A stretch of 64,000 bases of DNA from Bacteriovoracaceae bacterium. GTDB taxonomy: Bacteria; Bdellovibrionota; Bacteriovoracia; Bacteriovoracales; Bacteriovoracaceae. The stretch is from positions 832,001 to 896,000 of the forward strand of contig JBLWTJ010000001.1 of the NCBI GenBank assembly GCA_048270185.1. The letters run 5' to 3'. Both the position numbers and the translations under genes were made by a program. Shown here one piece after another: positions 6,114-49,330 of this stretch (positions are counted from its first letter, which is position 1; the number at the start of each line of letters is the position of its first letter). The notes under the pieces are model-generated. The model worked only from the letters and a program-made list of their open reading frames with translations, ran no database searches and was not told the DNA's origin.

Positions 6114-6731
6114 ATGACTCAAAAGAGTGTTTTTAAAGAAATTGATCTTGCAATTGACAAGCAAATAGAAGAAGCCAGAGGTTCTAATTTTTTTCAAAGT
6201 GTCTCTGATCAACTTCGTTCATTTTCAGAAAATGAGCAAAAGATTATTAACCAATTCTTTTCAGCTCTAGTTGTTATTATCCCTCTCCTATTACTAGTTG
6301 GTGTCTTTACCTTTCGTACAATCCAAAAAAGTGAATTAAATGAAAGAAAAGAACTTGAAGCGGCCATTATTAATTTTAAAGAAGGAATGGTACAATTAAA
6401 AACTCAAGAAGGTGCGGTTGTTACAACTCAGCCCATCTATGAAAAGGGTGATTTTGTAAAACTTCTTGAGTCTGCAACTTCTCGTCTTAACTTAAAGTCA
6501 GGACAAGTTAATGTTGATGGCTTTCAAAAAAATAATCTTGGTGGATCGATCAATAAAATTGAAACAAATATTATGATTGAAAAATTTACGAATAAAGCCT
6601 TCGTGGGTCTACTTAACGAACTCCATCGTAAATTTAAGGCAATTGTTACAGAAATTGACCTCAATCGTACAAGTGATTCTAAGTTTGTCTCAGGAAAGTT
6701 GTCCATCGAATTCTACTCAAAGACAAATTAA
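6114..6731 (+). CDS. GspM/PilO-like bitopic protein
   Basis: Single TM plus periplasmic domain; position after gspL. Confidence 0.55.
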   Translation: MTQKSVFKEIDLAIDKQIEEARGSNFFQSVSDQLRSFSENEQKIINQFFSALVVIIPLLLLVGVFTFRTIQKSELNERKELEAAIINFKEGMVQLKTQEGAVVTTQPIYEKGDFVKLLESATSRLNLKSGQVNVDGFQKNNLGGSINKIETNIMIEKFTNKAFVGLLNELHRKFKAIVTEIDLNRTSDSKFVSGKLSIEFYSKTN

Positions 6732-6751
6732 AAACAAGGTAAGAGGCTTAA

Positions 6752-7690
6752 GTGAATACAGAAGTTGCTGATACAGGTTCAGAAAACGAAATTTACAAAA
6801 CAAAGAAGACAACTATTTTAATGATCGTCATCTTTGCCTCCCTTTCACTAATTGCAGGCTTTATCATGAACTTCTCCTTAGAGGATCGTATTCTTGGCCT
6901 GATCCATGACGGATTAAAGAAGAATCGCTCATGTCCTATGTTCTACAAAGAAGCCAAGGTTAGTTACTTTCTACCAGGAATTGCTATCAGTGATCTTGAA
7001 ATTTCTCCTCGTTGCTTAAGAGCACAAAGAGGGTTGATGATTAAGGATATTGACTTCTCTCTTGGGCTACCTAGTATCACACCAATGGGAGTTACATTTA
7101 CTTCTCAAATAAGTGAAATTGATGGATTAGCTAGTACCATTAATCTTAAGTCGATTCACAATATTTCGACTCAATATATTCGCATTGAAGAATCCACTCT
7201 AAACCTTGCTTCTCTTGAAGCAATAATGGGAAAATTAAAAGTTGAAGGAAGCCTGAATATGACGGCATTTATGAGCACAGATCTTAAATCAATCAAAGAT
7301 CTCGATGCTTATATCACTTCAAAGAATTTTATTATTCCAGGCCAAGTGATTCAAAACTTTGAAATCCCTACGCTACTGATTAATAATTTATCTCTTAAGG
7401 CCCATTCAGAAAATTCTGGTCCAATTGAGATTCAGGAATTGATCATTGGTTCAGAGGATTCTCCAATTAGAGCAAATGCAACAGGTTCAATCGAACTTAA
7501 TCAAAGAAATATCAACAATTCAAAAATCGATATTGAGGCCCAAGTAAAATTCTCACAAGACTTTATTGAGCAATTCTCGATCATCAATCTCTTTCTTGGA
7601 AGTGGAAAACCAGATGAACAGGGTTTCTACCATATGAGAATCACAGGTACTCTTGGACGCCCTAACCCACCAGTGATAGTTAGTCCCTAA
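6752..7690 (+). CDS. gspN: GspN-like T2SS protein
   Basis: N-terminal TM, beta-rich body, C-terminal ITGTLGRP; last gene of gsp run. Confidence 0.6.
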   Translation: MNTEVADTGSENEIYKTKKTTILMIVIFASLSLIAGFIMNFSLEDRILGLIHDGLKKNRSCPMFYKEAKVSYFLPGIAISDLEISPRCLRAQRGLMIKDIDFSLGLPSITPMGVTFTSQISEIDGLASTINLKSIHNISTQYIRIEESTLNLASLEAIMGKLKVEGSLNMTAFMSTDLKSIKDLDAYITSKNFIIPGQVIQNFEIPTLLINNLSLKAHSENSGPIEIQELIIGSEDSPIRANATGSIELNQRNINNSKIDIEAQVKFSQDFIEQFSIINLFLGSGKPDEQGFYHMRITGTLGRPNPPVIVSP

Positions 7691-11286: not shown

Positions 11287-13485
11287 TTAATCAAGGTAAT
11301 CGATCATATCTGCTAGAACACCACTGGCCTTCTTGCTCACTGCTTTTTTCTTAGAGGCCTTGGTTGCTTTTTTGGCAACTTTTTTAGCGGCTTTCTTTGC
11401 TGTTTTTTTAGCGACTTTCTTTGCTGTTTTCTTAGCAGCTTTTTTGGCAACTTTCTTGGCAGCTTTTTTAGCAGGTTTCTTTGGTGCTACCGGCTCTTCT
11501 GGAGGTACACCTTCATTTAAAATCGTCGATTCTTCTTCATCAAGAAGAAGATCTTTTCTTAAATTCGTATCTTTTCCAAAGCAGATATTTAGCATCTCTT
11601 TTGCTTTGCTTGGTTTATCGATAACAATCTTAGTGTATTCTTCTTTTGAAAGAACATATTTCCAAGCTTCAGGAGACATCTCCCCTAATCCCTTGTTGCG
11701 ATGAATTTGTCTAATCTTTGCTTCACCTGCATTTCTAAACTCATCTAATTCTTTATCAGATTCAAAGTATAGAGTTTTCTTATCTGTTACAACCTCAAAA
11801 AGAGGTGCCTTAGCAATCTGGATGGCACCCATTTCAAATAATTCAGGCCAAAACTGGTAGAAGAAATTTGTAAGAAGTGTATTGATATGCCCACCATCGA
11901 CATCCGAGTCAGCGAGGAAGACAATATTAGAATAACGTAGCTTCTTCTCATCAACTTCTTGACCTAGGACTAATCCAACTGATGCCATGATGTCTGAGAA
12001 TTCTTGGTTATTTAAAATATCTTTAATTCCCGCTTGGGCAACATTCATTGGCTTACCTCGAAGGGCAATACCACCTTGATATAATTTATTACGAGCTGAC
12101 CTTAGTCCACCAATGGCCGAGTCTCCCTCACAAATAAAGAGAGTACAAAGATCACGTTTCTTTCGTTCGTTGGCATCAAGTAGTTTTTCAACTCTTTGAC
12201 GTTTTTGCTTACGGCCTTTTGATGCCGCTTCTTTGAGAACTTGATACTTATGACGAGATTTCCCTCTTTCAATAACAACTTCAAGATACTCTTTATTCTT
12301 ACGCATGAACTTATCAATATACTTGGCCATCAATTCCTCAAGGGCCTTTTCAAGCTGAACATCACGCACTAGTTTTCTCTTCGTCTGAGACTCAAACCTA
12401 GGGTTTGGCATCGTCACTCCAAGAACAAAAGTTAGGCCAGAAAGAATATCGTTATCAACTAACTTAATCTTTTCTTTCTTTGCTTGTCTTTCTAACTTGT
12501 CTTTAATGGCATTGATAAAGATACGTCTAACACGATCATGGTGGAAACCACCGTCATATGTAGGAGTTGAATTGACGAAAGAAATAAATTTTTCACGCTC
12601 TTCACTCGATTTATCAATATTAAGAGAAAGAGACATATCAATCTTCCCCTTAACTTTCTTCTTCTTTGTATTTATTGTTTCGTAGACATAACTTGCTTCA
12701 CCAAAGTCATGAGCATTTGCCTCATCAATTCTTTGGGCCAGTTCAAAGAGTCCTTTGTTATAGTGATACTTTTCACCATTAAAAAAGAAGGCAAGACCTG
12801 GGTTATTATATGCAAGGTCAATAATACGCTTTCTCAATAGATCTTCATCGATAACATTATTCTTATAGACTTCTTTGGCAAGAGTTACTTGAATCGATAC
12901 ACCAGAAGCACCTTTGAAAGTCTTTGGTTTTGTTTGGCTTATCTTAAGAGCACCATCGATAAATTTCGTCGTCTGCTCTTTCTTCGAATTATAGTGCTTA
13001 ATCGTTACAATAAATTCATCTGCAGTAAGACATGTGGCCGCGGCACCTAGACCATTTTGTCCAAGTGTACGATGAAGAAATCCCTTCTCATCTGTTTCTT
13101 CGTCTTTAAACTTTGAACCTGTTCTAAACTCTGAATAAACCTGCTTTACTTTATTAAGTGGAAAACCAATCCCATTGTCGGCAACTGTAACAGTCTTACC
13201 ATCAGCACTTAGAGAAGTGTGAATCTCTGTAACGTGTCCGCGGTAGTATTCATCAATACAATTATCAAGTAGCTCCTCAATGGCCTTTGATTTTGCTTGG
13301 TGAAATTTAACGGTTTGAAAGTCGACTGACTTATCTTGGTAAACGTAAGTTTCTAAATCTTCGATATCATTAGATCCAAAGACCAGGGTAATACGATTTC
13401 GACAGTGCCATCTCTGATCTTTACTCTCAATGACGGCGTCTTTCGTCTTACCTTTACGATTTACCTTTTCAATGCTGCGTCCCAT
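11287..13485 (-). CDS. Type IIA topoisomerase subunit B with Lys/Ala-rich tail
   Basis: GHKL motifs ELLDNCIDE, DNGIG and GQNGLG; FESQTK; TOPRIM motifs EGDSA, LRGK and DSDVDG; NKGLGEM. Confidence 0.93.
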   Translation of the reverse strand: MGRSIEKVNRKGKTKDAVIESKDQRWHCRNRITLVFGSNDIEDLETYVYQDKSVDFQTVKFHQAKSKAIEELLDNCIDEYYRGHVTEIHTSLSADGKTVTVADNGIGFPLNKVKQVYSEFRTGSKFKDEETDEKGFLHRTLGQNGLGAAATCLTADEFIVTIKHYNSKKEQTTKFIDGALKISQTKPKTFKGASGVSIQVTLAKEVYKNNVIDEDLLRKRIIDLAYNNPGLAFFFNGEKYHYNKGLFELAQRIDEANAHDFGEASYVYETINTKKKKVKGKIDMSLSLNIDKSSEEREKFISFVNSTPTYDGGFHHDRVRRIFINAIKDKLERQAKKEKIKLVDNDILSGLTFVLGVTMPNPRFESQTKRKLVRDVQLEKALEELMAKYIDKFMRKNKEYLEVVIERGKSRHKYQVLKEAASKGRKQKRQRVEKLLDANERKKRDLCTLFICEGDSAIGGLRSARNKLYQGGIALRGKPMNVAQAGIKDILNNQEFSDIMASVGLVLGQEVDEKKLRYSNIVFLADSDVDGGHINTLLTNFFYQFWPELFEMGAIQIAKAPLFEVVTDKKTLYFESDKELDEFRNAGEAKIRQIHRNKGLGEMSPEAWKYVLSKEEYTKIVIDKPSKAKEMLNICFGKDTNLRKDLLLDEEESTILNEGVPPEEPVAPKKPAKKAAKKVAKKAAKKTAKKVAKKTAKKAAKKVAKKATKASKKKAVSKKASGVLADMIDYLD

Positions 13486-13558: not shown

Positions 13559-14167
13559 TTGAAAGTTACAACGCGTCAACCATTGATAATTACAGCACTT
13601 TTTTTGCTAATTTCGATTTTTACAAATCATAGCTTTGCCAATGATTTTAGGGGGATCGAAGATGACATCAAAAATATTCTTGTCGAAAAAAAAAGAATTT
13701 ACCGCAAGGCACAAGTCGAGACGCACAAAAACAAACAAAGTTTAGATTACAGAATTTATGGGATTCATCCCAATAAGTGCAAGACTGCTCTGCGCAAGCT
13801 ATCGCGCTACGAAAAATTCAGTGAATATATCGATCTTGTAAAGCTATCTGGTTATTCAGAGAAGAAAAAGCAGATCTATCTCTATCTTGACCACACCCTC
13901 ATGCCTTTTCCAATGTCATTAAGCTTTAAAATTCCAAGAATCACAAGGCCAGGAGTCTATCCATTCACTTTTGATAAGGGATTCCTTAAAGGCCTAAAAG
14001 GTGAAATCAACGTTAGGCAATTAAAAGACGGACGTTGTCTCTTCTTTTCTACTTCATATTGGAAGGGTGAAAAGTCTTCAATCCCAGATACTCTATTTGA
14101 GATGTTTTCTGAGACACTTGGAGAGCTTGCCATGGAGAAATTATTTCGTATATCGCGCCGACTTTAA
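13559..14167 (+). CDS. Secreted hypothetical protein (possibly START/SRPBCC-like)
   Basis: Signal peptide ending SFA; fold guess is weak. Confidence 0.55.
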   Translation: MKVTTRQPLIITALFLLISIFTNHSFANDFRGIEDDIKNILVEKKRIYRKAQVETHKNKQSLDYRIYGIHPNKCKTALRKLSRYEKFSEYIDLVKLSGYSEKKKQIYLYLDHTLMPFPMSLSFKIPRITRPGVYPFTFDKGFLKGLKGEINVRQLKDGRCLFFSTSYWKGEKSSIPDTLFEMFSETLGELAMEKLFRISRRL

Positions 14168-15898
14168 CTCTTCAAAGAAAATCTTCTCACGAATATTCCA
14201 AAATTGACCTTTCTTGCGTGCAATAACGTACTTTGGTTTTCTAAAGAAATGTCGATCTTTTGAGACTTCTTCAATAGACTTTACCTTGTACTTTAATTCA
14301 GGGTTCTTTAAATGCTTTCGAACAAATGAATGAAAGAATGCCCCACGTTGGGAGTCACTTGTTAATTGATAGAATTCTTTTAGAGATTCTCCATTTACAT
14401 CGTAATAAGTAATTAAGAGACTACGACCTTTCTTGCCACTATATTCGCTAAAGATCATCTCCTCCACCCGCATAATGTGCGCATCCTTTAATTGCATGGC
14501 CTCTTTTAACTTCTTATCGGCATCGCGAATTTCATGCTCACAATAGTGGCATACATGGGCACTAATATCGTTGCTTTGTCCGCAATTTTCGCAAGTTTTA
14601 AAGCGAAAGAGAAAACCGCATTCTTCCACACTCATATCAGCTTCATTGATATGAATTCCCTGACATTTTCGCCCGTAATGTTCGATGACATGGCCTTCAC
14701 TATCCATCTTGCCCCAGAAGATATTCCCATGGCCACATTCAGGACAAAGAACTTGTACTTCCTCAGTGTCACCAGAAGGTCTTACTTCGCCTACTTCTGG
14801 TTTAAAAATATCGTGATCAAGTCCCGTATAATCAAGGATTAAACAATCAGTTTTTCCTTCATAGAGACGCAGTCCACGGCCAACAATTTGTTGGTATAAA
14901 CTAATGGACTCCGTCGGACGAAGAATTGCAATTAAATCGACATGAGGAGCATCAAAGCCAGTGGTTAAAACAGAGACATTAACTAAGAATTTAAGCTTTT
15001 GATCCTTGAAATCTTTAATTAATTTATCGCGCTCATCTTGAGGTGTTTCACCTGTCACAATAGCACTTAAACCTTCAGGTAAATAAGAGAGGACTTCTCG
15101 TGCGTGTTTAACCGTAGAAGTAAAGAGCATGACTCCACGCCTACTTTGAGCTTCTTGAGTGATATGCTTTACAATGCCAGGAGTAACACGGGCACTATCA
15201 TTTAAAATCTTTTCAATTTCTTGAGTTAGAAAGCGCCCTGTTTCATCATTAATTTCAAGCTTTGAAAAATCATAACAGGCCACAGGTGAATCAATTTTTA
15301 TCGGTCTTGTTAAGTACTTATTCTTAATCATAAAGCTAAGCGGTAGCTCATAAATACAATGCTTGAAAAAGCGCTCTTCTTTAGTTCTAAGAATTTCATG
15401 ATAGTGATAATTATAAACCCAGCCCATCCCTAAGCGGTAAGGCGTGGCAGTTAAGCCTAAGAAGAAAACCTTCTCATTTTGATGGCGCAATTTCTTAAAA
15501 ACTTGATGGTATTGCGAGTCTTCTTCTAGTGAAATTCGGTGACATTCATCAATAACAATAAGTGAAAAGTCTTTAAAGAATTCATCAGGAGCACGGGCAA
15601 CAGACTGGATAGAGCCAAAAATAACTTTATCATTATGGTCTTTTCGATTCATGGAAGCTGAAAAAATTCCGGCCTTTAAATCATAAGCTTCATACTTAGC
15701 ATGATTTTGCTCGACTAACTCTTTAACGTGAGCAAGAACAAGGACTCGACCTCGTGCAATTCGCGCAAGTTCAGCAATGACAAGACTCTTTCCTGCTCCA
15801 GTTGGTAGTACAATTAAAGCAGGATCACTTGATCTTTGAAAATGACGAATAGTCTTATCAACGGCCTCTGTTTGATAATCTCGTAACTTAAATACCAT
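14141..15898 (-). CDS. radD: SF2 DNA repair helicase RadD (YejH)
   Basis: LRDYQ, LPTGAGKS, DECH, TATP, TTGFDAP and QIVGRGLR motifs; C-terminal Cys clusters. Confidence 0.93.
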   Translation of the reverse strand: MVFKLRDYQTEAVDKTIRHFQRSSDPALIVLPTGAGKSLVIAELARIARGRVLVLAHVKELVEQNHAKYEAYDLKAGIFSASMNRKDHNDKVIFGSIQSVARAPDEFFKDFSLIVIDECHRISLEEDSQYHQVFKKLRHQNEKVFFLGLTATPYRLGMGWVYNYHYHEILRTKEERFFKHCIYELPLSFMIKNKYLTRPIKIDSPVACYDFSKLEINDETGRFLTQEIEKILNDSARVTPGIVKHITQEAQSRRGVMLFTSTVKHAREVLSYLPEGLSAIVTGETPQDERDKLIKDFKDQKLKFLVNVSVLTTGFDAPHVDLIAILRPTESISLYQQIVGRGLRLYEGKTDCLILDYTGLDHDIFKPEVGEVRPSGDTEEVQVLCPECGHGNIFWGKMDSEGHVIEHYGRKCQGIHINEADMSVEECGFLFRFKTCENCGQSNDISAHVCHYCEHEIRDADKKLKEAMQLKDAHIMRVEEMIFSEYSGKKGRSLLITYYDVNGESLKEFYQLTSDSQRGAFFHSFVRKHLKNPELKYKVKSIEEVSKDRHFFRKPKYVIARKKGQFWNIREKIFFEELKSARYTK

Positions 15899-16296
15899 TT
15901 CTATTTTCTTTATCCCTAAACATTACAAAATCTCTTTTAATCCTCATTGCTACGGCCTTAGTGCAATCCTATAAATTTAAAACTTTTCCTTGGAATATTA
16001 TTAAAGATACTTAACTAAATGTATATTTATGATTCGTTACATATTTGTTCAATTCATAAAATCTAAAACTAAAAATCGTAAGACGTTAGAATTTAAAACC
16101 ATAACTTTCAGAAGTGAAAACATCAAAGAATCACAACAAAAAAACCCTTAATTTCAGATAGTTAAATTACTTCTCCCTTTTTATTTGGCACCTCAAATGA
16201 AATAAAATAAATTGACTCACTAGTGATATTCACTCATTAAAAATAATTTATCATTCAGTTCGCCATTCAAACTATGATAGCAGAAAGGAGTTCTCT

Positions 16297-16899
16297 ATGA
16301 TCAATTCTATTTCCAAAAATATCTTAACTTACCCATGGGACAATCTAGACTTTGTTCAAAACTTTTTGGCCCAAACTTATTATTACGTTAATCATTCAGA
16401 GAAATTATTATGTCTATCGATGGCAAGGCTAAGTGAAGATAAAGAGTTTAGAAGATTTAAGGAGCACCTTATAGAAGAGAGTGCACACGACCGTCTGGCA
16501 ATAAATGACTTAAAAAAATTTAATTCAAATATAAACAATCATACTGAGTACGCCACAACAAAAGCATTCTATCAAACACAGTACTACTTGATCGAACACA
16601 AGCATCCACTGTCGTTATTAGGTTATATTCTTTTCTTAGAAGAGCTTGCGGATCAAGCAGGTAGATCAATTCATGAAAAACTAGAAGAATACTATAGTAA
16701 AACATCAGCTTTCATCAAGCTACACTATGAAGAAGATGAGGATCACGTTGAAGAGGCCAAGAAATTAATCAACACTCTACCTGAAGAGATAAAATCAATT
16801 ATTTATCAAAACTATGATGATTCAAAAAAGTTATATTATTCAATGCTTGATCAAATCGTCGAAGAAATTACTTCAAAGAATCAAAACAAAGCAGCATAG
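16297..16899 (+). CDS. Heme-oxygenase-like diiron (iron-containing redox) enzyme
   Basis: HLIEESAH, FLEE and LHYEEDEDH metal-ligand pattern; AAGGAG RBS. Confidence 0.8.
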   Translation: MINSISKNILTYPWDNLDFVQNFLAQTYYYVNHSEKLLCLSMARLSEDKEFRRFKEHLIEESAHDRLAINDLKKFNSNINNHTEYATTKAFYQTQYYLIEHKHPLSLLGYILFLEELADQAGRSIHEKLEEYYSKTSAFIKLHYEEDEDHVEEAKKLINTLPEEIKSIIYQNYDDSKKLYYSMLDQIVEEITSKNQNKAA

Positions 16900-16914
16900 A
16901 TAAGAAGGTTCAAG

Positions 16915-17655
16915 ATGCATGATATTAACCCAAATGATTTAAAGCTCTATTTAATCAAGCCGGGTGAAATAACACCGACTGGCTACACTTCTCTTCTATT
17001 AGATTTTTACTATAAATGGATGGATGTTTGGAGAAAATCATATATCAAACTAGGGGCACGAGAAGATGCGATCGAAAAACTCTACTCTGATCGACTCTTG
17101 ATACAGGATGAATTAGTTATTCTTACCTATCAAGGAGAAATTGTCTCAGGGGCGAGCTTTAAAATATTTAATCTTGCAAATCAGCTTCACCTTCATCAAG
17201 AATATTTTTCAGATATTGATGAATTAACAATGAAAAAACTATTAAAAATATCCGTTGATAATAAATTTATCTCATGTGGAGACTTAACACTTATTTCGAA
17301 ATTTACAACGAGTAAATCCGATTTCAATTGGAAGTACCTTATTTTGGCGGCTTTATTTGAAAGAAGTATTAGGCAAGATAATGGGCCACTTGTTGCCTAT
17401 ACAAATAATATAATGAAAATAACAAAGGGCTGTGTGGACTTAGGGGCAGAAGTGATAAAGAAAGAATTCAAGCATCACTTACCTTTTGGAGCAAGCTGTG
17501 TTGTCGATGTCATTTACGTCAACGATCGGACTCTAGAGAATGTATCGGAAGAAATGAAAGTTTATGGTCTTCTCGCCAGAGACTTACTTGATCGATGCTA
17601 TAGCAACTCTGATATTCCAGTATTCTCTCGAGAAAGAAAGAAGTCTACTGGATAA
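16915..17655 (+). CDS. Hypothetical protein, possible GNAT/acyl-transfer (LuxI/FeeM-like) fold
   Basis: 15 bp after the diiron enzyme gene; helix/strand pattern loosely GNAT-like (VILTYQGEIVSGASF ... CVDLGAEVI). Confidence 0.5.
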   Translation: MHDINPNDLKLYLIKPGEITPTGYTSLLLDFYYKWMDVWRKSYIKLGAREDAIEKLYSDRLLIQDELVILTYQGEIVSGASFKIFNLANQLHLHQEYFSDIDELTMKKLLKISVDNKFISCGDLTLISKFTTSKSDFNWKYLILAALFERSIRQDNGPLVAYTNNIMKITKGCVDLGAEVIKKEFKHHLPFGASCVVDVIYVNDRTLENVSEEMKVYGLLARDLLDRCYSNSDIPVFSRERKKSTG

Positions 17656-19012
17656 CAGAATCGTCGTCTTCATTAGATAAATATTCTTGGTCATCCTCTT
17701 CCTCTTCTACGCTTTCAAGAAAAATTGGAATCTTAACTTCTACTTTTGTTCCATGAGTATTATCAAAATCAATTGTACCACCAACACGGTCGACAATATA
17801 ACAAAGAATACCGAGCCCCATACCACTACCGGTCTCATTCTCTGTACCTACCCTTGAAGTAACTTTAGAGAATGCCTTAACAGAATTAATGATTTCATCT
17901 GAAATCCCTTCTCCATTATCCTCAACACAAAAACAAAGAGTCGTATTATCTGTATGAATATTTAATTTTACGATATCTCGATATGACGAGAACTTTAAGG
18001 CATTAGTTAAAAGGTTACCAACAATTGTCTTAACAATTATTTCACTGCTAACTTCTGTATAGCAGTCTTCATTTTCACCATTAAAATTCTTAATAAGTTT
18101 CACACGCTTTTGATTGAATCTATCTTTATAGTTCTCATCAATTGTTGTCATAACTTCAAAAATATTAATAGGATAAAGATTCTTTTCATTATCATTATAT
18201 TGATTACTAATCTCGGTCTTAAAGCGAATCAGCTCATCAAGTCGATCATTTGCTTTTTTTACATATGAGATATCATCTTTTTTAATTGCACGACTTAAAG
18301 ATAGTGAAACGAAATTTAAATCATTAGAAGTATCATGGATTAGCGCTTTATATAGAGAATTCGTTAGTTTTAACTCAGACTGTAATTTGTGATCAAGTGA
18401 TACTTTCTTATCGAGAAGCTTTAAAAGGAATCCCAACATAATTGAAACATATGTGAAGACAGCTCCTGTCCACCCCCATAATTCTGCACCTTCATCAAAT
18501 CTAAAGAATGGGTATGTTAATGTATTAACGATACCTGAAAACAGAATTAAAGAATAAAAGTAATTGGCAGCTTTGTTTAATCTCTTTAGATGAAAGTAAA
18601 GAGCAATAGCTCCAGGCATATATCCACTTATAGAGAATAAGAGAGTATAGGCCGTAAAATTATCTGTTTGAGAGAAAATAACCCCACTTATTGCGATACA
18701 AATAAGATGCAAAGAAATGAATTTATTTCGATATTTTGTAAGTTTACCGTCCATAAAGTAATTACCAAGGAAGTAAACAGGAATAAGTTGGAGCGTAAAT
18801 ACAGCAGCTGCCATCACTTTTGTTTGCCCAAAGAATAACGTTATAACGTAAACGATAAAGACGCTCGTAATAAACCTTTTAAACTGAGTGTAATCTTCAG
18901 TCTTATCAACCGCAGCAACGATGTAGACACAAATGTTACACATTACAAGAAAGGCCAGTAGCGAAATATATAGAATCAGCATATTATTCATAAAGTTATA
19001 TCTATCAAACAA
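17645..19012 (-). CDS. Multi-TM (about 7) sensor histidine kinase
   Basis: Hydrophobic N-terminal ~200 aa; H box LIHD, N box NLLTNALKFS, DNGEG, GSGMGL; exact start uncertain. Confidence 0.88.
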   Translation of the reverse strand: MFDRYNFMNNMLILYISLLAFLVMCNICVYIVAAVDKTEDYTQFKRFITSVFIVYVITLFFGQTKVMAAAVFTLQLIPVYFLGNYFMDGKLTKYRNKFISLHLICIAISGVIFSQTDNFTAYTLLFSISGYMPGAIALYFHLKRLNKAANYFYSLILFSGIVNTLTYPFFRFDEGAELWGWTGAVFTYVSIMLGFLLKLLDKKVSLDHKLQSELKLTNSLYKALIHDTSNDLNFVSLSLSRAIKKDDISYVKKANDRLDELIRFKTEISNQYNDNEKNLYPINIFEVMTTIDENYKDRFNQKRVKLIKNFNGENEDCYTEVSSEIIVKTIVGNLLTNALKFSSYRDIVKLNIHTDNTTLCFCVEDNGEGISDEIINSVKAFSKVTSRVGTENETGSGMGLGILCYIVDRVGGTIDFDNTHGTKVEVKIPIFLESVEEEEDDQEYLSNEDDDSVIQ

Positions 19013-19144
19013 ACTTTAGGTTAGAAAACATTAATAAATATTATGTATTTTCTACCAGTCCTAAGTGGTTAAAATCATTAGTAAGTTAAAAAATAATCAG
19101 CAAAAAAATTAATTAATTAATAACTCAATCTCAACTTAATTGAG

Positions 19145-20005
19145 TTACAAATTGGAATAACACTCTCTTAGTAAATTTCCATACTCTCTTTCAAGAGTAT
19201 CAAGTAAATCAGCAGATGAGCGAGGCGCTTGGTAGTACTTAACAAAGTGCTCATAAACATCACGTCTTAAATGATCGGGAAAGTTCAGCTCATTTAGATC
19301 AAGCCCCTTGCCTTTAATGAAGATCGAGCTAGGAGTGAAGCGTTTAGAATAATCTACAATATTTAAAGTATCTTTAAAGCGAATATCTCCATCAGGGAAT
19401 AAGCGGGCCTTAATTCTTGCAAGTCCCTTTTCTCCAAAGCATGAGTTCTTAATTGAATTTATACCGTGAGCAAGTAGCAAATCTTGAATATTTGATTTAA
19501 CACCGATGATTAGATCAGAGGCCGTGTAGCCAAAGAATTCATGTGTAGCAATGAGAGAATTCGTTCCCCTAGCGTTGGCCCTAAACCAATCTTGCGTGCG
19601 AGAGAGAGCCTCTTCAGTCGTGCTACGGCTCCCTTTTACAAGGACATCAAAGTCTGCGTGCATGAGTTCATGAAAAATCGTTGAAGCGAGAATATCAAAT
19701 TCATACTTACGAGACTGAGGAAAATCACTAGCACCTACAATACGATTACCACGCCAATTCTTTTCACGTAATACAATGGTATTGGTTTTATCGTTATAAG
19801 TCGCTTCAGCTCCAGACTTATTCATCATCCATCTTTCAAATGCATTCGGTTTGCGAATACGAACCTTTGAAATGACAGAATCGAGTCGAGATGAATTTAG
19901 ACCAAAGTGCTTATCTAAAGAATCTGAAAATTCAGAGATTGTCACCGGAGAGGCCGCAAGGACATAAGTTGCAAATAAGAGTGATAAAATAGCTTTCATA
20001 TCCAT
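19145..20005 (-). CDS. Secreted protein with HExxH zinc-peptidase motif
   Basis: Signal peptide; IFHELMH; downstream ATHE. Confidence 0.6.
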   Translation of the reverse strand: MDMKAILSLLFATYVLAASPVTISEFSDSLDKHFGLNSSRLDSVISKVRIRKPNAFERWMMNKSGAEATYNDKTNTIVLREKNWRGNRIVGASDFPQSRKYEFDILASTIFHELMHADFDVLVKGSRSTTEEALSRTQDWFRANARGTNSLIATHEFFGYTASDLIIGVKSNIQDLLLAHGINSIKNSCFGEKGLARIKARLFPDGDIRFKDTLNIVDYSKRFTPSSIFIKGKGLDLNELNFPDHLRRDVYEHFVKYYQAPRSSADLLDTLEREYGNLLRECYSNL

Positions 20006-20106: not shown

Positions 20107-21441
20107 TTACTTATCAATACCGTTTAAAATAAAGGTAAAATTAGTACCCTTATCAAGTTCTGAAGTCACTTTAAACTCTCCACCAATTTCTTCGATGAAG
20201 TGGATTGCAATGGCAAGACCATTTCCTGATCCTTGTTCATTCATTGTGCCATTACTAGAATCTAACTCGTGTAAATTATAAAGCTTTCTAAGGGTCTTTT
20301 GGTTCATGCCAACGCCTTCATCAATCACTTCAATGACACAAAGATTTTCTTTCTTTAGATGGCTTAATTTTACAGTAACGCTACTATCTGAAGAAGAGAA
20401 CTTAATTGCATTTTGAATAAGATTTGTCAGAATATTTTCTTTTAAAATTGTTGGGTTTGTTTCGACAAAGACATCTGCTTCCGCATCAATTCTTAATTCA
20501 ACATTCTTATTGAGGGCGTAATCAGAGAGATCATTAAGACTTTCTTGGACTAGTTTTCGTATATCAATTTTCATTTTAAATAAACGTGTCGATTGTGAGT
20601 TTTTAATAATCCCATTGACCGCAGCAATATAGGAATCAATTTTATCAACTGCACCATCAATATCGCCACGAGAAATTTTCATTTTGGCAAACTCTAGCAT
20701 TTGAAGCTTATTATAGATATCGTGATTAAGGGTGCGATTTAAGACTTGAAGCTTGCGATTCAGCTCTAATTGCTTCACGGACATAGTTTCAAGCTTCATT
20801 GTTTTAAGTTCAAGAGAGTTAGCATACTCGAGATTTTCAAAAACCACGCGCTCAAGCTGGCGAGGGCCAACAAAGAAGCGTCGATGAATTTGCAAAATAC
20901 TCCAACGATTAAGAATACCGTTTAATTGAAATTCAACACGATCCTCATGCTCTTTAAAACTTACAGAGATGGGTTTTTTATACTTAAAGAACATCATGGG
21001 AAAGTGGCGAAAAATACCAACATACATATTCACAAACTCTTCAAATGGACGAGTATCACTGTGAAAAAGAAAAGAAATATTTAAGCTAGAGCGAGACCCT
21101 CGACTAAAATTGAGTGTTATATTTCGATAAAGGGCCTTAAATGCGTATTTTAGAAGGAAGCGAATAATAAAAACTTCCCCTGTAAAATAGCTAGCAACAT
21201 GAAGAAGTGAGCTAAAGATTGAATTCTCTACCCCGGTATTCGTAACTAACTTCACGTAGTCGGGGTAAGTCTGGGCAAAAGACTTAGTAATTAAACTAAA
21301 CTCTTCCCACGACAGCATATCCCTTTGATCTAATAATGAATTATAATCAAAGCCTAGATCCTCGAAGAATTCTCTCGGATCATCATTTTTAACCTTAATG
21401 GCATCAATATAAGCAACTAGCGCTTTATTACTTACGTCCAT
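20107..21441 (-). CDS. Cytoplasmic sensor histidine kinase
   Basis: LNHDIYN H box, NLIQNAIKFS, DEGVG, GSGNGL; no clear TM. Confidence 0.88.
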   Translation of the reverse strand: MDVSNKALVAYIDAIKVKNDDPREFFEDLGFDYNSLLDQRDMLSWEEFSLITKSFAQTYPDYVKLVTNTGVENSIFSSLLHVASYFTGEVFIIRFLLKYAFKALYRNITLNFSRGSRSSLNISFLFHSDTRPFEEFVNMYVGIFRHFPMMFFKYKKPISVSFKEHEDRVEFQLNGILNRWSILQIHRRFFVGPRQLERVVFENLEYANSLELKTMKLETMSVKQLELNRKLQVLNRTLNHDIYNKLQMLEFAKMKISRGDIDGAVDKIDSYIAAVNGIIKNSQSTRLFKMKIDIRKLVQESLNDLSDYALNKNVELRIDAEADVFVETNPTILKENILTNLIQNAIKFSSSDSSVTVKLSHLKKENLCVIEVIDEGVGMNQKTLRKLYNLHELDSSNGTMNEQGSGNGLAIAIHFIEEIGGEFKVTSELDKGTNFTFILNGIDK

Positions 21442-21794: not shown

Positions 21795-23021
21795 TTAACC
21801 CCCGAAGTCGTCGAGCATGATATCTTCTCTTTCTACACCTAGATCGATAAGCATGTCGATTACACATTGGTTCATGATTGGAGGACCACATAGGTAGTAC
21901 TCACAATCTTCAGGAGCAGGGTGCTTACTTAGGTATTCATCATGTAGTACTTGGTGAATAAACCCTGTATAACCATCCCAATTATCTTCTGGTAGAGCAT
22001 CTGAAAGAGCTACGTGCCAAGTGAAGTTATCATTTTCGGCTTGTAGGCCATCAAAATCTTCAACGTAGAACATTTCTCTCTTAGAACGTGCACCGTACCA
22101 GAAAGTCATCTTACGTTTAGAGTGTAGTCTCTTAAGTTGGTCAAAGATGTGTGAACGCATTGGCGCCATACCAGCTCCACCACCAACGAAAACCATTTCT
22201 TTATCTGTATCACGAGCAAAGAACTCACCAAATGGTCCAGAGATAGTAACCTTATCTCCTGGTTTACAGCTAAAGATATAAGAAGACATTTTACCTGGAG
22301 GAGTTCCCTTAGGAGCTCTTGGAGGAGGAGAAGCAATACGCACGTTTAGCATAATGATCCCTTTCTCTTCCGGGTAATTTGCCATTGAGTAAGCTCTGAT
22401 CGTTTCTTCATTAACAGTCGAATTATACTGCCAAAGATTAAAGTGATCCCAGTCCCCTCTATATTCTTCTTCAACATCGAAGTCTTTGTAGTCAATAGAA
22501 AGTCCTGCAGGTCTTTCGATTTGGATGTAACCACCAGCTCTAAAAGGAACTGACTCACCTTCAGGAAGCTCAAGTACGAACTCCTTAATGAAAGTAGCAA
22601 CATTGTGGTTAGATCTAACCGTACATTCCCACTTCTTTACACCAAATACTGACTCTTCAACTTCAACTTCCATATCAGTTTTAATACCAACCTGACATGC
22701 TAGTCTTAGTCCCTCACGAGCTTCTTTCTTAGAAATATGTGACATTTCTGTCTCTAAGATTTCCCCTCCACCTGAGTGAACGTGTACAGTACATTGACCA
22801 CAAGTACCCCCACCACCACAGGCAGAAGATACGAATAATTTTTGATCAGCAAGAGCGTTTAGAAGCTTTCCACCAGCTGGAATGCTTACAACTTTCTCAC
22901 CGTTAATTGTTAATTTAACGTCACCACTTGAAACCAGCTTTGACTTAGCAAAAAGAATTACTAAAACAAGTGCCAGAACCACAACGGTAAACATTAAAAC
23001 ACCAAGAATAATTGCATTCAT
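21795..23021 (-). CDS. nqrF: Na+-translocating NADH:quinone reductase subunit F
   Basis: [12 protein letters not shown] 2Fe-2S motif, [18 protein letters not shown], terminal DDFGG. Confidence 0.98.
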
Positions 23022-45194: not shown

Positions 45195-45270
45195 GGGCCT
45201 TTAGCTCAGCTGGGAGAGCGCTTCGCTGGCAGCGAAGAGGTCAGCGGTTCGATCCCGCTAAGGTCCACCA
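45195..45270 (+). tRNA. tRNA-Ala (GGC)
   Basis: 76 nt; GGGCCTT/AAGGTCC acceptor stem with G3:U70; CTTCG-CTGGCAG-CGAAG anticodon arm; GGTTCGATCC; encoded CCA. Confidence 0.98.
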
Positions 45271-45585: not shown

Positions 45586-45612
45586 AGTCGTGAAAGTCGT
45601 GAGAGTCGTGAG
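45586..45612 (+). repeat. AGTCGTGAR x3 tandem repeat
   Basis: 9-bp period upstream of the ORF at 45701. Confidence 0.8.
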
Positions 45613-45700
45613 AAGTTTTACCAGTTTATTCCCCATATTTAGCCTGCTCAAAAAGCCTTTATTAACAGCTATTTTTAGCAATAAACAACGGAGGCAAGAA

Positions 45701-46051
45701 ATGTCTAAAAAAGAAAACAAGAATGTTACTTACAATTCTCTAAGAGTTAAAAATGAAACTAAAGCTTTGCTACAAAATTTATTAGCAAAGATTAACAAGA
45801 ATGAAGATTGCGGGAAAATCACCTCTGACAAAATCATTCATCACTTAGTTAAAAATGTGACAAATGAAGACATCAAAGCACTACAGCTAGAATCTATAAC
45901 ATGGGAGCATGAAGATCGTAGATTGAAGAAGCTTTGGGAAAAGAAAAAAGGCAAAATTTCTGAGAATAAATGGAAGGAAATGCTCTACATTGGTCAACTT
46001 GCTGAGTTCATAAATGAACATTCTAGGCTGAAAGTTGGGGCAAATGCTTAG
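45701..46051 (+). CDS. Small hypothetical protein, possible ribbon-helix-helix DNA binder
   Basis: GGAGG RBS; TYNSLRVKNETKALLQNL strand-helix pattern. Confidence 0.6.
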   Translation: MSKKENKNVTYNSLRVKNETKALLQNLLAKINKNEDCGKITSDKIIHHLVKNVTNEDIKALQLESITWEHEDRRLKKLWEKKKGKISENKWKEMLYIGQLAEFINEHSRLKVGANA

Positions 46052-46122
46052 AGAGAATATGTACATTAATCAGGGGAGACTGTCACATTTCTTCCCTGAT
46101 TATAAAGACTTACAGTTAAACC

Positions 46123-46153
46123 TTGACAAACTACGCTAAGTAGCGTAGTTTGT
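46123..46153 (+). promoter_or_regulatory. Sigma70 promoter overlapped by a 13-bp inverted-repeat operator
   Basis: TTGACA (46123) - 17 bp - TAGTTT (46146); acaaactacgcta-ag-tagcgtagtttgt. Confidence 0.8.
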
Positions 46154-46167
46154 AAAAAAGATTAAGG

Positions 46168-46488
46168 ATGATTAGCAAGAAAATTATTTATTACACACTG
46201 GAAAACGGAGACTCCCCCTTTGAGAATTGGCTCAAGAAATTAGACAATTTAAGCCGAGCAATTGTCGTTAGATTTGTTCAAAGAGTTGCAACTGGAGGAG
46301 CAAAAAAATCCATCAAAGCTTTAAAAGATGGAATTTTTGAAATTAAAATAACTCACGGCCCAGGTTATAGAGTTTACTTTGCTGAAGATGGTGATGAGAT
46401 CATTATTCTTTTAGTTGGTGGTGACAAGAAAACCCAAAGTCGTGACATTGATAAAGCAAAGGAGTATTGGAGGAATTATGGCAAATAG
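46168..46488 (+). CDS. RelE/HigB-like type II toxin (addiction module killer)
   Basis: SPFENWL, GIFEIKI.HGPGYRVYF, LLVGGDKKTQSRDI.KAK.YW. Confidence 0.92.
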   Translation: MISKKIIYYTLENGDSPFENWLKKLDNLSRAIVVRFVQRVATGGAKKSIKALKDGIFEIKITHGPGYRVYFAEDGDEIIILLVGGDKKTQSRDIDKAKEYWRNYGK

Positions 46489-46789
46489 ACATAAAGACTT
46501 TAATGAATTGGTCGCTCAAGAATTTGAAGATTTAGGTTTTGCTCAAGCATATATTACAAATTTGATAAACAATGAAGACCTTACTTTGGAAGATGCCCTA
46601 AGAGAATCAATCAAATCTATGGGCCTACAAGCATTTGCTGAAAAGGCAGAAATTTCTATTTCTTATGTCTCTGACTTCGTAAATAAACGTCGCAAATGGA
46701 GCACTGATAATCTTGTGAAATACATTGAGCAAGTGTTCAATCTAAAAATAAAAATGAGCGTAGAAGTTCAAAATAACGAAGTGGCTTAG
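46478..46789 (+). CDS. HTH antitoxin (HigA-like)
   Basis: Overlaps the toxin end; GGAGG RBS; MGLQAFAEKAEISISYVS HTH. Confidence 0.8.
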   Translation: MANRHKDFNELVAQEFEDLGFAQAYITNLINNEDLTLEDALRESIKSMGLQAFAEKAEISISYVSDFVNKRRKWSTDNLVKYIEQVFNLKIKMSVEVQNNEVA

Positions 46790-46829
46790 CTGCCGCTTTG
46801 TTCGTAATTGCTAATACATATGAGGCTGC

Positions 46830-47288
46830 CTATGCAGCCTCTAGGTTGTCTTCAATAAAATTTTCAAGATCATATAACCAGTAATAATTTGATCCATTAT
46901 CGAATGTAATTACTTGGTCATCTTGCTCTAATCCGTCCATATATTCTGATTTAGCAATATCCCATGCAATTGGGTCTTGCTCTTTCATAACTTCAACTGT
47001 CAAAAGTTCAAGAAATCCAACTTTAGTTGTTTCGCCATAGCAATCTTCAATCATTTGCTCGAAACTTTCAGTTATATCAACTGTTTCAAGGTTCTCTTCG
47101 AGTATGTTTTCGATAACCCAATCAGTTCCATATTCACACCCATATTCAGGTAATAGCCTCATCAGATCGTCTGAGTGACATGTCTTACAAGTTCCAGTTG
47201 GTGCTTCCTTGTAACATGAGTAACAAAATGGAATAGTTTTATTGAAAGCTATTTTTTCTAAATTTTTATTAATTTCTTTTAAACACAT
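46830..47288 (-). CDS. Zinc-ribbon protein with highly acidic C-terminal region
   Basis: CYSC...CKTC; AGGAG RBS before ATG 47288. Confidence 0.75.
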   Translation of the reverse strand: MCLKEINKNLEKIAFNKTIPFCYSCYKEAPTGTCKTCHSDDLMRLLPEYGCEYGTDWVIENILEENLETVDITESFEQMIEDCYGETTKVGFLELLTVEVMKEQDPIAWDIAKSEYMDGLEQDDQVITFDNGSNYYWLYDLENFIEDNLEAA

Positions 47289-47294
47289 AATTTT

Positions 47295-47462
47295 GCTCCT
47301 ATATAATTGTTTCATTTCTTGGAAGCCGAAGTAACGAAGTCGAGTGCATTTCAAGGAAAAACTCGGAGGGTTCCCTCTGGGAGACCGTGTTTTTCCTTGA
47401 AATGTTAGGGAGCGTAGTGAATGAATAGCGTACAAAATGAAGACAATTTATATATTAGGAGC
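47295..47462. promoter_or_regulatory. Large nested imperfect inverted repeat
   Basis: Perfect 16-bp inner stem 47347-47362/47389-47404; outer imperfect stem gctcctatataattgtttcattt / aaatgaagacaatttatatattaggagc. Confidence 0.7.
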
Positions 47463-47533
47463 TTTAATCAGTTTACTAAGAAGCAAATAATTGAAATAAA
47501 TAACTAATAATACAGTTCTTGTTAGGGGTTACT

Positions 47534-49330
47534 ATGTCAAACAATGAAAAAAAGAATTTCACACTCGATAATTTGATTGAGATTTTTACTGAAAACGACT
47601 GTATTGAGAAATGTTTATCTAAAATCTCGAAAGAAAAAAATGATGATACTGAAATAGACAAAGATGTGTTGTTAATCGAAGAAGTCTTAAGACTTGGCTT
47701 GGATGGAAAAAACGAAAAGGAACCATTTAAACCTTTCATGGAATATCAGGGCAAGAGAACATTGTCGTTGGAAGATATAAAGACAGAACAATATCAGGTA
47801 ATAGAAAACTTAATTGGTAAAATAAAAAGTCATCATGTCAATGCTAGACTAGCAGATGTCCTCTGGGCCGGATGCCAAGATTACCCAAAAGTAGAACTGG
47901 CACTAGAATCTTATCTTTCATACATAGAAGACTTTGTTAGCAGTGAAGAAAAAAGATCAAAGGCACTAATACGAGATGAATTAAAGAGATGTTCCTCTCT
48001 TCTGCGTTTAACTAAAGACAAAGATACTCTTAAAGAAAGATTGTCTAATATTTTCAAAATATTAATTAGTCCTAAAGACAAGGAGCCAAGTGACTTTACA
48101 AGATTTATCTATTTTAAGATTTACGCTTTTGCAAACCTTGAAGATGATAAGAATATTATTCAAATGTCAGAGAATTATGCAGATGAATCAAAAACTCAGA
48201 AGCACTTTAGAAAATATCGTGACTACTTAGATATATGTTTAAAGTTACACAAAAAAGCAAAAGACGTTGATAAAAGAGATCAGACCCTTAATCTTATTTG
48301 TGACTCATATTTCGATGAAATTAAAAGTATAAAAGAAGACGGGGGCAATGGCCTAATGTTAACCGAAGCATGCTCAAGAGCTTTGTACGAAAATATGATG
48401 GCACATAAAATAACGAGAAGTCGAAAAGAAGCAATTGATGATATACATGCAGAATTAAATAATGCCTCACTTAAATCACAAGATGAAATGAAGTCTTCTC
48501 CATTTGACATAGACCTTTCAAAACCAATGGAAGAAACATTTAAAGCAATTGAGAAGCTAGATACTATAAATGGTATATTGGCTTTAACTTATAAAACGAT
48601 TCCTCAAGAAGTTGAATATTATCAAAATCATGCAAAAGAAGCTGTAAAGGGTTCTCTGCGCCATTTGTTTTCGACAATACATTATGATGACAATGCGAGA
48701 ATAGTTGATAGAGATAATGGCCTCTCTTTTGAGAATGAAGATGAGAATGCTTCGATTTTACTCTCAGAAGCCTTATTTCTATTTAAAAACGGAGTCTTAA
48801 TAAAAGGAACTTGCATAGATCACGGCAGAAATACTCTCCTTCTTAGACATGACATCACTGAATATGATTTTGAAAGTTTTCTTACAAATAATCCTTTTAT
48901 ACCTCCAAACAGAATCTCCATAATCAGAAAAGCCTTATGGTATGGGTTTATTGGGAAATGGGAAGAATCAATGTATTTATTAGTCCCTCAATTTGAAAAC
49001 TGTTTTCGGCATTTCTTAGAAAATGTAGGTGTAATAGTTACTCTTATTGATGAAGATATAGTTCAACAAGAAAGAACTTTAAGCTCTCTGTTACATCTAC
49101 CTGAATTTAAAAAAGTATTTGGTGAAGCTCATCTCTTTCAAATTAAAGCTCTTTTGTCAGAAAATAAAGGTTTTAACTTCAGGAACAGGCTTTCACATGG
49201 ACTAATTGGAGATGATTTCTACGACTCATGTTCTTATTTCTCTCCATTTGTTTGGGGCTATTTCATTTACCTTAGCTATATGCTTAGGGAAACTTTCTAT
49301 GAAAAGCTCAACCAAGTCAAAGAAATCTAA
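47534..49330 (+). CDS. DUF4209-type protein with C-terminal HEPN-like domain
   Basis: ARLADVLW N-terminal motif; PQFENCFR and NFRNRLSHG (RxxxxH). Confidence 0.78.
   Translation: MSNNEKKNFTLDNLIEIFTENDCIEKCLSKISKEKNDDTEIDKDVLLIEEVLRLGLDGKNEKEPFKPFMEYQGKRTLSLEDIKTEQYQVIENLIGKIKSHHVNARLADVLWAGCQDYPKVELALESYLSYIEDFVSSEEKRSKALIRDELKRCSSLLRLTKDKDTLKERLSNIFKILISPKDKEPSDFTRFIYFKIYAFANLEDDKNIIQMSENYADESKTQKHFRKYRDYLDICLKLHKKAKDVDKRDQTLNLICDSYFDEIKSIKEDGGNGLMLTEACSRALYENMMAHKITRSRKEAIDDIHAELNNASLKSQDEMKSSPFDIDLSKPMEETFKAIEKLDTINGILALTYKTIPQEVEYYQNHAKEAVKGSLRHLFSTIHYDDNARIVDRDNGLSFENEDENASILLSEALFLFKNGVLIKGTCIDHGRNTLLLRHDITEYDFESFLTNNPFIPPNRISIIRKALWYGFIGKWEESMYLLVPQFENCFRHFLENVGVIVTLIDEDIVQQERTLSSLLHLPEFKKVFGEAHLFQIKALLSENKGFNFRNRLSHGLIGDDFYDSCSYFSPFVWGYFIYLSYMLRETFYEKLNQVKEI

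Follow-up and report, generated by a model that had tools for sequence, protein, structure and literature searches.

A 64,000-nucleotide stretch of the genome of a Bacteriovoracaceae bacterium (contig JBLWTJ010000001.1, positions 832,001 to 896,000; the whole stretch is called the window here) was analyzed, and a group of three genes in it is, judging from sequence, a strong candidate for a new system of chemical signalling in predatory bacteria. These genes encode ORF1, a predicted heme-oxygenase-like diiron oxidase/oxygenase (HDO), ORF2, a protein modelled with the fold of LuxI and FeeM, and HK1, a predicted membrane sensor kinase (Table 1). The reading of ORF1, ORF2 and HK1 as a conserved three-gene module, in which two enzymes would make a small molecule and the kinase would be its dedicated sensor, was held with moderate confidence.

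The two enzyme genes were found side by side in related genomes, most of them from Bdellovibrionota. A scan with the oxidase alignment of one genome per species, in a GTDB-based collection, retrieved 72 loci (numbered L below), of which 30 were Bacteriovoracales-like, 28 Bdellovibrio/Oligoflexia-like, 6 from Myxococcota and 8 other or unclear, with the lineage labels given in the sequence records, many of these being metagenome-assembled genomes. A relative of ORF2, detected with a hidden Markov model (HMM) of its family, lay directly beside the oxidase in 64 loci. In another two, L029 and L047, a gene of the FeeM family PF21926 (E-values of 1.3e-29 and 1.3e-31) was located immediately upstream of the oxidase, which is the position of the ORF2 relatives in most loci, and FeeM and ORF2 relatives appear to be interchangeable in this genomic slot. 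Furthermore, domain coordinates revealed fusions of an ORF2-like N-terminal part with an HDO C-terminal part, one in L071 (469 aa) and another in the ORF2 relative P0044 (452 aa). The adjacency in 64 of the 72 loci, the FeeM substitution and the fusions led us to consider the two families an obligate functional pair.

The third gene was also found to recur. In a two-step HMM search with the first 215 residues of HK1, the same membrane domain was detected in the kinases of 26 loci, the matches in L010 and L035 being ORFs with the transmembrane domain only. Relative to the enzyme pair, the kinase lay upstream in the same orientation in 14 of these loci, convergent and overlapping in 7, one gene away in 4 and divergent in 1. 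The convergent overlaps measured 4–22 bp and were found in L001, L004, L006, L007, L010, L027 and L048, plus the window. An earlier note on this DNA, made from the letters alone, would have been refuted if the oxidase homologues showed no linkage to multi-transmembrane kinases, and these 26 loci show such a linkage. The co-occurrence of the three genes that it had proposed to check was observed in 23 of the 72 loci. The kinase turned out to have a counterpart that takes its place in other loci, the two partner types excluding each other. It was also considered that unrelated genes might have come together by chance in an AT-rich gap, as kinases are common in these genomes and a second, unrelated one lies two genes away (HK2, Table 1). 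This explanation is hardly credible, given that the trio recurs in divergent genomes and in several gene orders and that the sensor domain of the kinase is family-specific. The adjacency in the window is more than chance because it is repeated in related genomes.

The other partner was a soluble PAS-fold protein of about 230 aa, belonging to no Pfam family, which replaced the kinase in 28 other loci, including those of B. bacteriovorus Bd16 and Bdellovibrio sp. HCB-162. The proteins of this type share the motif EIY..Q.FRN..F...SY.L..L, and a gene for an XRE-type helix-turn-helix (HTH) protein accompanied them in 15 of the 28 loci. The model of the PAS partner (predicted local distance difference test, pLDDT, of 94.5) comprised a helical N-terminal part and a C-terminal PAS fold. 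Its matches in the PDB, obtained with Foldseek, were LOV, NifL and the PAS-B domains of HIF-2a/ARNT, with E-values of about 1e-3 and target-normalised template-modelling (TM) scores of 0.53–0.69 over about 120 residues. Both partner types were never present in one locus (0 of 72). On an oxidase tree of 74 rows, obtained by a quick maximum-likelihood run, the partner type changed 3 times, compared with 18.9 times when the labels were shuffled, and none of 500 shuffles gave a number as low. This pattern shows that the partner type is stably inherited together with the oxidase; it is not evidence of co-evolution, because relatives share labels.

With respect to the first enzyme, ORF1 matched PF14518 Haem_oxygenas_2 with 52.2 bits (cut-off 28.9) and an E-value of 8.5e-14 over residues 21–164, and PF14518 was also present in the 36 ORF1 homologues (36/36) retrieved by a word search. 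By this model, ORF1 is a member of the HDO family, and Fe2 binding and O2 activation are predicted for it. About a dozen heme-oxygenase-like diiron enzymes have been characterized, and they act mainly on fatty acids and amino acids and carry a set of three histidines and three carboxylates (3H/3C) on three core helices of a seven-helix fold, according to the available sections of a review (PMC13108848). The two ligand motifs that the earlier note had given for the diiron enzyme were both found in the sequence, HLIEESAH (H57..E60 E61..H64) and HYEEDEDH (H143..D147..H150). Residues E61, H64 and E115 were conserved in all 74 homologues, H143 and D147 each in 73 of 74, and H150 in 72 of 74. These six residues are candidate 3-His/3-carboxylate metal ligands, assigned after the scheme in section 4 of the same review (PMC13108848).

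In its PF14518-type domain and its putative 3H/3C set, ORF1 resembles the characterized HDOs (UndA, BesC, SznF, AetD, HrmI, PolF, MboA and CADD), but in sequence it is only weakly similar to those with solved structures. The nearest solved sequences were 3dde, of unknown function (E-value 3.2e-13), MboA 9ypi (4.5e-4) and UndA (0.47); hence, ORF1 is not close to any characterized HDO. Matches were also obtained with TENA_THI-4 (E-value 0.0088) and with the CADD model TIGR04305 (E-value 0.0018, 17.9 bits for a cut-off of 200), and some sources label the homologues of ORF1 as "thiaminase". These matches would agree with a role of ORF1 in cofactor metabolism (thiamin, pyrroloquinoline quinone or folate), as an enzyme like TenA, PqqC or CADD whose neighbours are unrelated to it. 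Such a role is very improbable, since both matches fall far short of their curated cut-offs, conservation extends to the complete set of candidate diiron ligands, ORF1 is obligately paired with and sometimes fused to a GNAT-like protein, and genes for thiamin, pyrroloquinoline quinone or folate were not among the scanned neighbours.

A side observation concerned the C-termini of both enzymes. ORF1 ends in ...NQNKAA (16882–16899), and the oxidases of its family ended in A in 48 of 72 cases and in AA in 27 of 72. In the ORF2 family these endings were present in 43 and 20 of 63 proteins, respectively, the ORF2 of the window ending in ...STG and lacking such a tail. The background among ORFs of at least 150 aa was 70 of 789 for A and 23 of 789 for AA, and the count for the PAS partner was 2 of 31. 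The typical tail of the enzyme families was K-[AVSI]-A. These Ala and Ala-Ala tails resemble an ssrA-like degron, and the synthases may accordingly be turned over rapidly by proteolysis.

The second enzyme, ORF2, had no match in Pfam and no meaningful match in NCBIfam. When 1.84 billion representatives were searched exhaustively with HMMER, the search retrieved 33 relatives at E-values up to 0.001, of which 32 were 191–252 aa long, the exception being the fusion P0044. From an alignment of 30 sequences, AlphaFold2 gave a model of ORF2 with a pLDDT of 93.6 and a predicted TM-score of 0.91, and this model was compared with the PDB by Foldseek, as had been suggested beforehand. The ten best matches were all acyl-homoserine lactone (AHL) synthases or FeeM, with other GNAT proteins next. 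These included RpaI (6wn0, E-value 1.9e-6), EsaI (1kzf, 4.7e-6), LasI (1ro5, 1.6e-5) and BjaI (5w8c, 2.2e-5), the AHL synthases having target-normalised TM-scores of 0.52–0.58, and FeeM (2g0b_D, 8.0e-5) with a score of 0.59. The acyltransferase call that the earlier note had itself described as weak was thus strengthened, the modelled fold being of the LuxI/FeeM kind. In a protein-language-model Atlas, the nearest named clusters to ORF2 were likewise GNAT/FeeM (0.93), and the nearest of them carries PF13444 and PF00583. Given that the fold matches and that sequence methods confirm neither LuxI nor FeeM, ORF2 was assigned, according to its model, to a new family within the GNAT superfamily, one that has the autoinducer-synthase/FeeM fold but lies outside both the LuxI and the FeeM families.

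The structural matches raised the question of true AHL chemistry, in which ORF2 would be a divergent LuxI-like enzyme making an acyl-homoserine lactone from S-adenosylmethionine (SAM) and an acyl group carried by acyl carrier protein (ACP) or coenzyme A (CoA), and ORF1 would modify the chain or the lactone. The five best Foldseek matches are indeed AHL synthases (RpaI, EsaI and LasI), ahead of FeeM, but the gap in E-value between the LuxI-type matches and FeeM is small. The signature PF00765 Autoind_synth was absent from ORF2, from the 30 family representatives (E-values up to 1) and from the 62 locus relatives (E-values up to 0.1), no LuxR-type receptor was found among the neighbours scanned, and the named enzyme that occupies the slot of ORF2 is FeeM, an amino-acid acylase. 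AHL synthesis was consequently considered improbable.

HK1 showed a HATPase_c domain (E-value 1.1e-17) and an H-box of the dimerization and histidine phosphotransfer domain, ..LIHDTSNDL.. in sequence. The motifs HD..N.L, N...N..KFS, D.G.G and G.G.G were conserved in at least 80% of 26 members of the HK1 family, and HisKA was detected in relatives such as that of L041 and not in HK1 itself. By its H, N, G1 and G2 boxes, HK1 is a predicted two-component sensor histidine kinase, and no receiver domain (Response_reg) was found in it. When hydropathy was averaged over the 26 relatives, its N-terminal sensor part of about 220 aa presented about seven hydrophobic segments within residues 1–200, connected by short loops, in accordance with the seven-segment kinase originally proposed. 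Residues 1–215 matched no curated family of Pfam or NCBIfam, and in the Atlas they led to unnamed clusters only, plus a weak 7TMR-DISM lead at 0.84.

Putting these predictions together, we infer a scheme that covers the substrates, which of the two reactions comes first, the exit of the product from the cell and its binding by HK1. With acyl-ACP or acyl-CoA as the donor of a fatty acyl group, ORF2 would acylate an amine, probably that of an amino acid, yielding an N-acyl amino acid. ORF1, as a predicted diiron enzyme that activates O2, would tailor this product or its precursor by desaturation, oxidative decarboxylation or hydroxylation. A precedent is found in the tyz cluster, in which an O2-dependent desaturase acts on the N-acyl-Tyr product, as described in the accessible part of PMC10404671. 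The hydrophobic product would partition into membranes and be detected by the seven-transmembrane domain of HK1, the autophosphorylation of which would shift and pass to a response regulator encoded elsewhere. In other lineages, the cytoplasmic PAS protein and the XRE DNA-binding protein would constitute the alternative receptor. Sensing of the product is proposed on indirect grounds, namely that two structurally unrelated ligand-binding modules interchange beside the same enzymes and that HK1 has no extramembrane sensor domain.

A regulated effector or membrane-lipid pathway was the main rival explanation. In this case, the oxidized N-acyl amino acid or aminolipid would be a membrane component, a surfactant or an antibiotic, for example in predation, and HK1 (or the PAS/XRE pair) would regulate the pathway on another cue or on membrane perturbation and would not be a specific receptor of a self-signal. 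Pathway-specific regulators commonly adjoin biosynthetic genes, and PF13444, carried by the nearest named Atlas cluster of ORF2, presumably also covers OlsB-type aminolipid synthases. Genes of lipid type were found near the module, namely a PlsC-type acyltransferase in 5 loci and a fatty-acid desaturase in 6, and this lipid context likewise favours the proposed synthase pair. The products of FeeM-type pathways include antibiotics, biofilm-modifying lipids and cell-envelope lipids, as reported in the portions available of PMC7293339 and PMC10404671. Nevertheless, the unrelated seven-transmembrane and PAS sensors swap and never co-occur, which is most easily explained if both bind the same pathway-related ligand; moreover, the module is tiny, with no transporter or further lipid-assembly genes in the window. 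This pathway was considered less likely than the signalling module, but more likely than the other rivals.

Several observations weigh against the proposed synthase pair with its dedicated sensor. The first ones concern ORF2, whose likeness to the LuxI and FeeM enzymes lies at the level of the fold only, with TM-scores of 0.44–0.59 and root-mean-square deviations of 6–8 Å. None of the 30 family representatives reached a Pfam or NCBIfam cut-off, and none of the 62 locus relatives a Pfam one; the best E-values for PF21926, 0.051–0.095 in 3 of 92 family members, were all short of the cut-off. When the ORF2 family was aligned by hhalign with a five-sequence FeeM alignment, the result was not significant (E-value 0.011, probability 3.9%), the alignment being in register over 106 columns, and two single FeeM-like proteins gave E-values of 0.31 and 0.17. 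A sequence-profile search of the PDB with ORF2 returned 0 matches at E-values up to 10.

The remaining observations of this kind concern the partners. Neither sensor type was found in 18 of the 72 loci, including all six from Myxococcota, some of the contigs being short. The clustering of partner types on the oxidase tree also follows from common descent, and a pathway regulator that responds to another cue would just as well be encoded beside the enzymes. L042, L044 and L054 keep the oxidase and the kinase, but the place expected for ORF2, downstream of the oxidase, is taken by a methyltransferase. The full 6-kb flanks of L042 contained no ORF2 relative, and the oxidases of L044 and L054 are no more than about 330 bp away from a contig end. 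In the window, no exporter was seen adjoining the module. The 64 kb contain 63 non-nested ORFs with a minimum length of 90 aa, and a scan of 62 of them, all but the NqrF-like ORF at 21795–23021, detected no receiver domain of a response regulator; the kinase had already been described as having no adjacent response regulator.

As regards known systems, one likeness was to the FeeM pathways (fee, tyz with TyzA/TyzC, and the stieleriacine clusters), in which an acyltransferase of the LuxI/FeeM fold is also found beside an O2-dependent oxidase of N-acyl amino acids, and of which a true FeeM gene stands in for ORF2 in L029 and L047. Like ORF2, TyzA is recognizable by structure only, as stated in the part available of PMC10404671. 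The two kinds of systems differ in the oxidase, which is heme-oxygenase-like and diiron here and of flavin or nitroreductase type in those pathways, and in the ORF2 family being below the cut-off of PF21926. Furthermore, a dedicated sensor, either the seven-transmembrane kinase or PAS/XRE, is present here, whereas the source sections at hand describe none for those clusters.

A second likeness was to two-component quorum sensing. In the LuxM/LuxN, CqsA/CqsS, LqsA/LqsS and PhcB/PhcS systems, the synthase gene adjoins the gene of a multi-transmembrane kinase. The module shares with them a putative synthase beside such a kinase without a periplasmic domain, and the expected ligand is likewise hydrophobic and acyl-derived. 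The quorum-sensing kinases of this type and their signals are named in the sections available of PMC8895600 and PMC11960443, and those of PMC8895600 describe LuxN and CqsS as hybrids that include a receiver domain. HK1, unlike LuxN and CqsS, has no C-terminal receiver domain, and its sensor matches no curated family. The synthases are also different, a GNAT-like protein with an HDO here and a pyridoxal-phosphate-dependent CqsA, a LuxM-type enzyme or a methyltransferase there.

With the LuxI/LuxR systems, the module has in common that the best structural matches of ORF2 are LuxI-type synthases. Convergent genes of synthase and receptor with overlapping 3' ends occur in some luxI/luxR pairs. The module differs from these systems in having no PF00765 signature, no LuxR-type receptor and an additional, obligatory diiron oxidase. 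Hence, the logic of the module resembles that of LuxM/LuxN, CqsA/CqsS and the FeeM pathways, yet it was not placed in any of the known families: PF00765, the LuxI signature, was not matched, the score for FeeM is below the cut-off, and the receiver domain of LuxN/CqsS is missing from HK1, the sensor of which matches no curated family.

In the window, ORF1 and ORF2 are separated by 15 bp, an AGGAG sequence is located 6 bp ahead of the ATG of ORF1, and the start of HK1 is ambiguous between the TTG at 19012 and an ATG seven codons downstream. The tail-to-tail overlap of 11 bp announced by the earlier note was located exactly (Table 1). The AT-rich patch that it had pointed out was equally real: the GC content of 15899–19144 was 0.318, below that of all 304 sampled segments of equal length (mean 0.363, standard deviation 0.021). 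The leader of about 400 bp that it had placed ahead of ORF1 corresponds to an AT-rich stretch of 398 bp, but this is a divergent intergenic region with no recognizable RNA element, and the promoter and 5' sequences of ORF1-ORF2 presumably lie in it. An RNA element at this site was rejected, as there was no Rfam match at E-values up to 1, promoter-like sites did not exceed those of shuffled sequences (15 observed and 16.5 expected), and only weak repeats were present. The three genes of the module were the only ones shared by the window and its nearest relative, L001, and this, together with the low GC content, led us to regard them as a cassette moving as a unit.

Table 1. Features of the module and its surroundings in the window, and examples of the alternative partner from two related loci.
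Feature	Positions	Strand	Description
ORF1	16297-16899	+	200 aa; predicted heme-oxygenase-like diiron oxidase/oxygenase (HDO); PF14518 match
ORF2	16915-17655	+	246 aa; unclassified GNAT-superfamily family, LuxI/FeeM-like fold; proposed N-acyl transferase
HK1	17645-19012	-	455 aa; predicted sensor histidine kinase, about 7 transmembrane segments; HATPase_c
ORF2/HK1 overlap	17645-17655		11 bp, tail-to-tail 3' ends; convergent transcription
Intergenic region	15899-16296		398 bp, GC 0.266; between divergent radD and ORF1
radD	14141-15898	-	RadD helicase, NF053632, 896 bits
ORF4	19145-20005	-	286 aa; N-terminal signal-like hydrophobic stretch; HELMH (HExxH-type) motif
HK2	20107-21441	-	444 aa; second kinase, no transmembrane segments; unassigned N-terminal region of about 200 aa
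PAS partner (example, L020)	6590-7261	-	soluble PAS-fold protein; also in 27 other loci
XRE gene (example, L009)	6612-6872	-	small XRE-type HTH

Two neighbouring genes were tried as further parts of the module and rejected. ORF4 matched no family of Pfam or NCBIfam, and none of the 72 loci contained a relative of it; from its sequence, it may be a secreted metallopeptidase. HK2, another histidine kinase of the orphan type, encoded at a distance of two genes from the module, has no transmembrane segments and does not recur in the related loci, and it was unrelated to the PAS partner family (hhalign E-value 0.14). Further away, a GyrB/ParE-type topoisomerase subunit (DNA_gyraseB and Toprim; 11287–13485, minus strand) has AKK/KKA repeats over about 70 aa at its C-terminus, similar to the DNA-binding tails of the histone H1-like type. 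Downstream of the only tRNA of the window, Ala-GGC (45195–45270), are genes suggestive of mobile elements or defence (45590–49330), including those of a Gp49/HigB-like protein at 46168–46488 and a DUF7380/DUF4209 protein at 47519–49330, and an integrase of the rve family was found at 62155–63339. The tRNA-Ala region with these genes and the integrase may be an island.

The related loci provided additional observations on the composition of the module. Among the loci without an ORF2 relative, L058 had a methyltransferase upstream of the oxidase, L057 an unnamed ORF of 329 aa, and L028 was cut off at the contig end. The SAM-methyltransferase-like ORF of L042 (6640–7467) and L044 (1002–1829), with its equivalent in L054, belongs to one Bdellovibrionaceae clade, in which a single-domain response regulator follows the kinase. 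Single-domain response regulators were present in 7 loci and an aromatic amino acid hydroxylase near the module in 5, and an acyl-CoA dehydrogenase was found in L013 and an acyl-ACP thioesterase in L024, each scanned in one locus. Additionally, an extended module was observed in one Bacteriovoracaceae clade (L041, L045, L050, L056, L060 and L062; for example L041, 6619–9643). A trypsin-like peptidase, an unnamed protein of 248 aa and a second, different multi-transmembrane kinase are encoded downstream in these loci. On the upstream side, five of the six have a PlsC-type acyltransferase together with an aromatic amino acid hydroxylase, the latter being a hint that the substrate is an aromatic amino acid.

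The module was rated as a putative synthase-receptor system of a kind already known, with new families of enzymes and sensors. A literature search, which had subscription-only papers outside its coverage, found no description of this module and no endogenous signal synthase/receptor pair for Bdellovibrio-like predators, and the words GNAT, N-acyl, quorum and signal were absent from the 2026 HDO review (PMC13108848). In a broader and more tentative interpretation, Bdellovibrionota and a few other lineages might possess a widespread form of cell-cell or self-signalling, in which a new LuxI-like family and a diiron oxidase would produce an oxidized N-acyl amino acid, to be read by a new class of seven-transmembrane kinases or, interchangeably, by a PAS/XRE pair, and in which ssrA-like Ala-Ala tails may keep the synthases short-lived. 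If this is true, heme-oxygenase-like diiron enzymes would gain a new reaction context, the autoinducer-synthase fold a new sequence family and the repertoire of sensors a new ligand-binding membrane domain. The substitution of a membrane kinase by a PAS/XRE pair, and vice versa, would constitute a natural experiment, and this compact, phylum-wide synthase-sensor module would offer a testable handle on how predators coordinate attack, growth and release.

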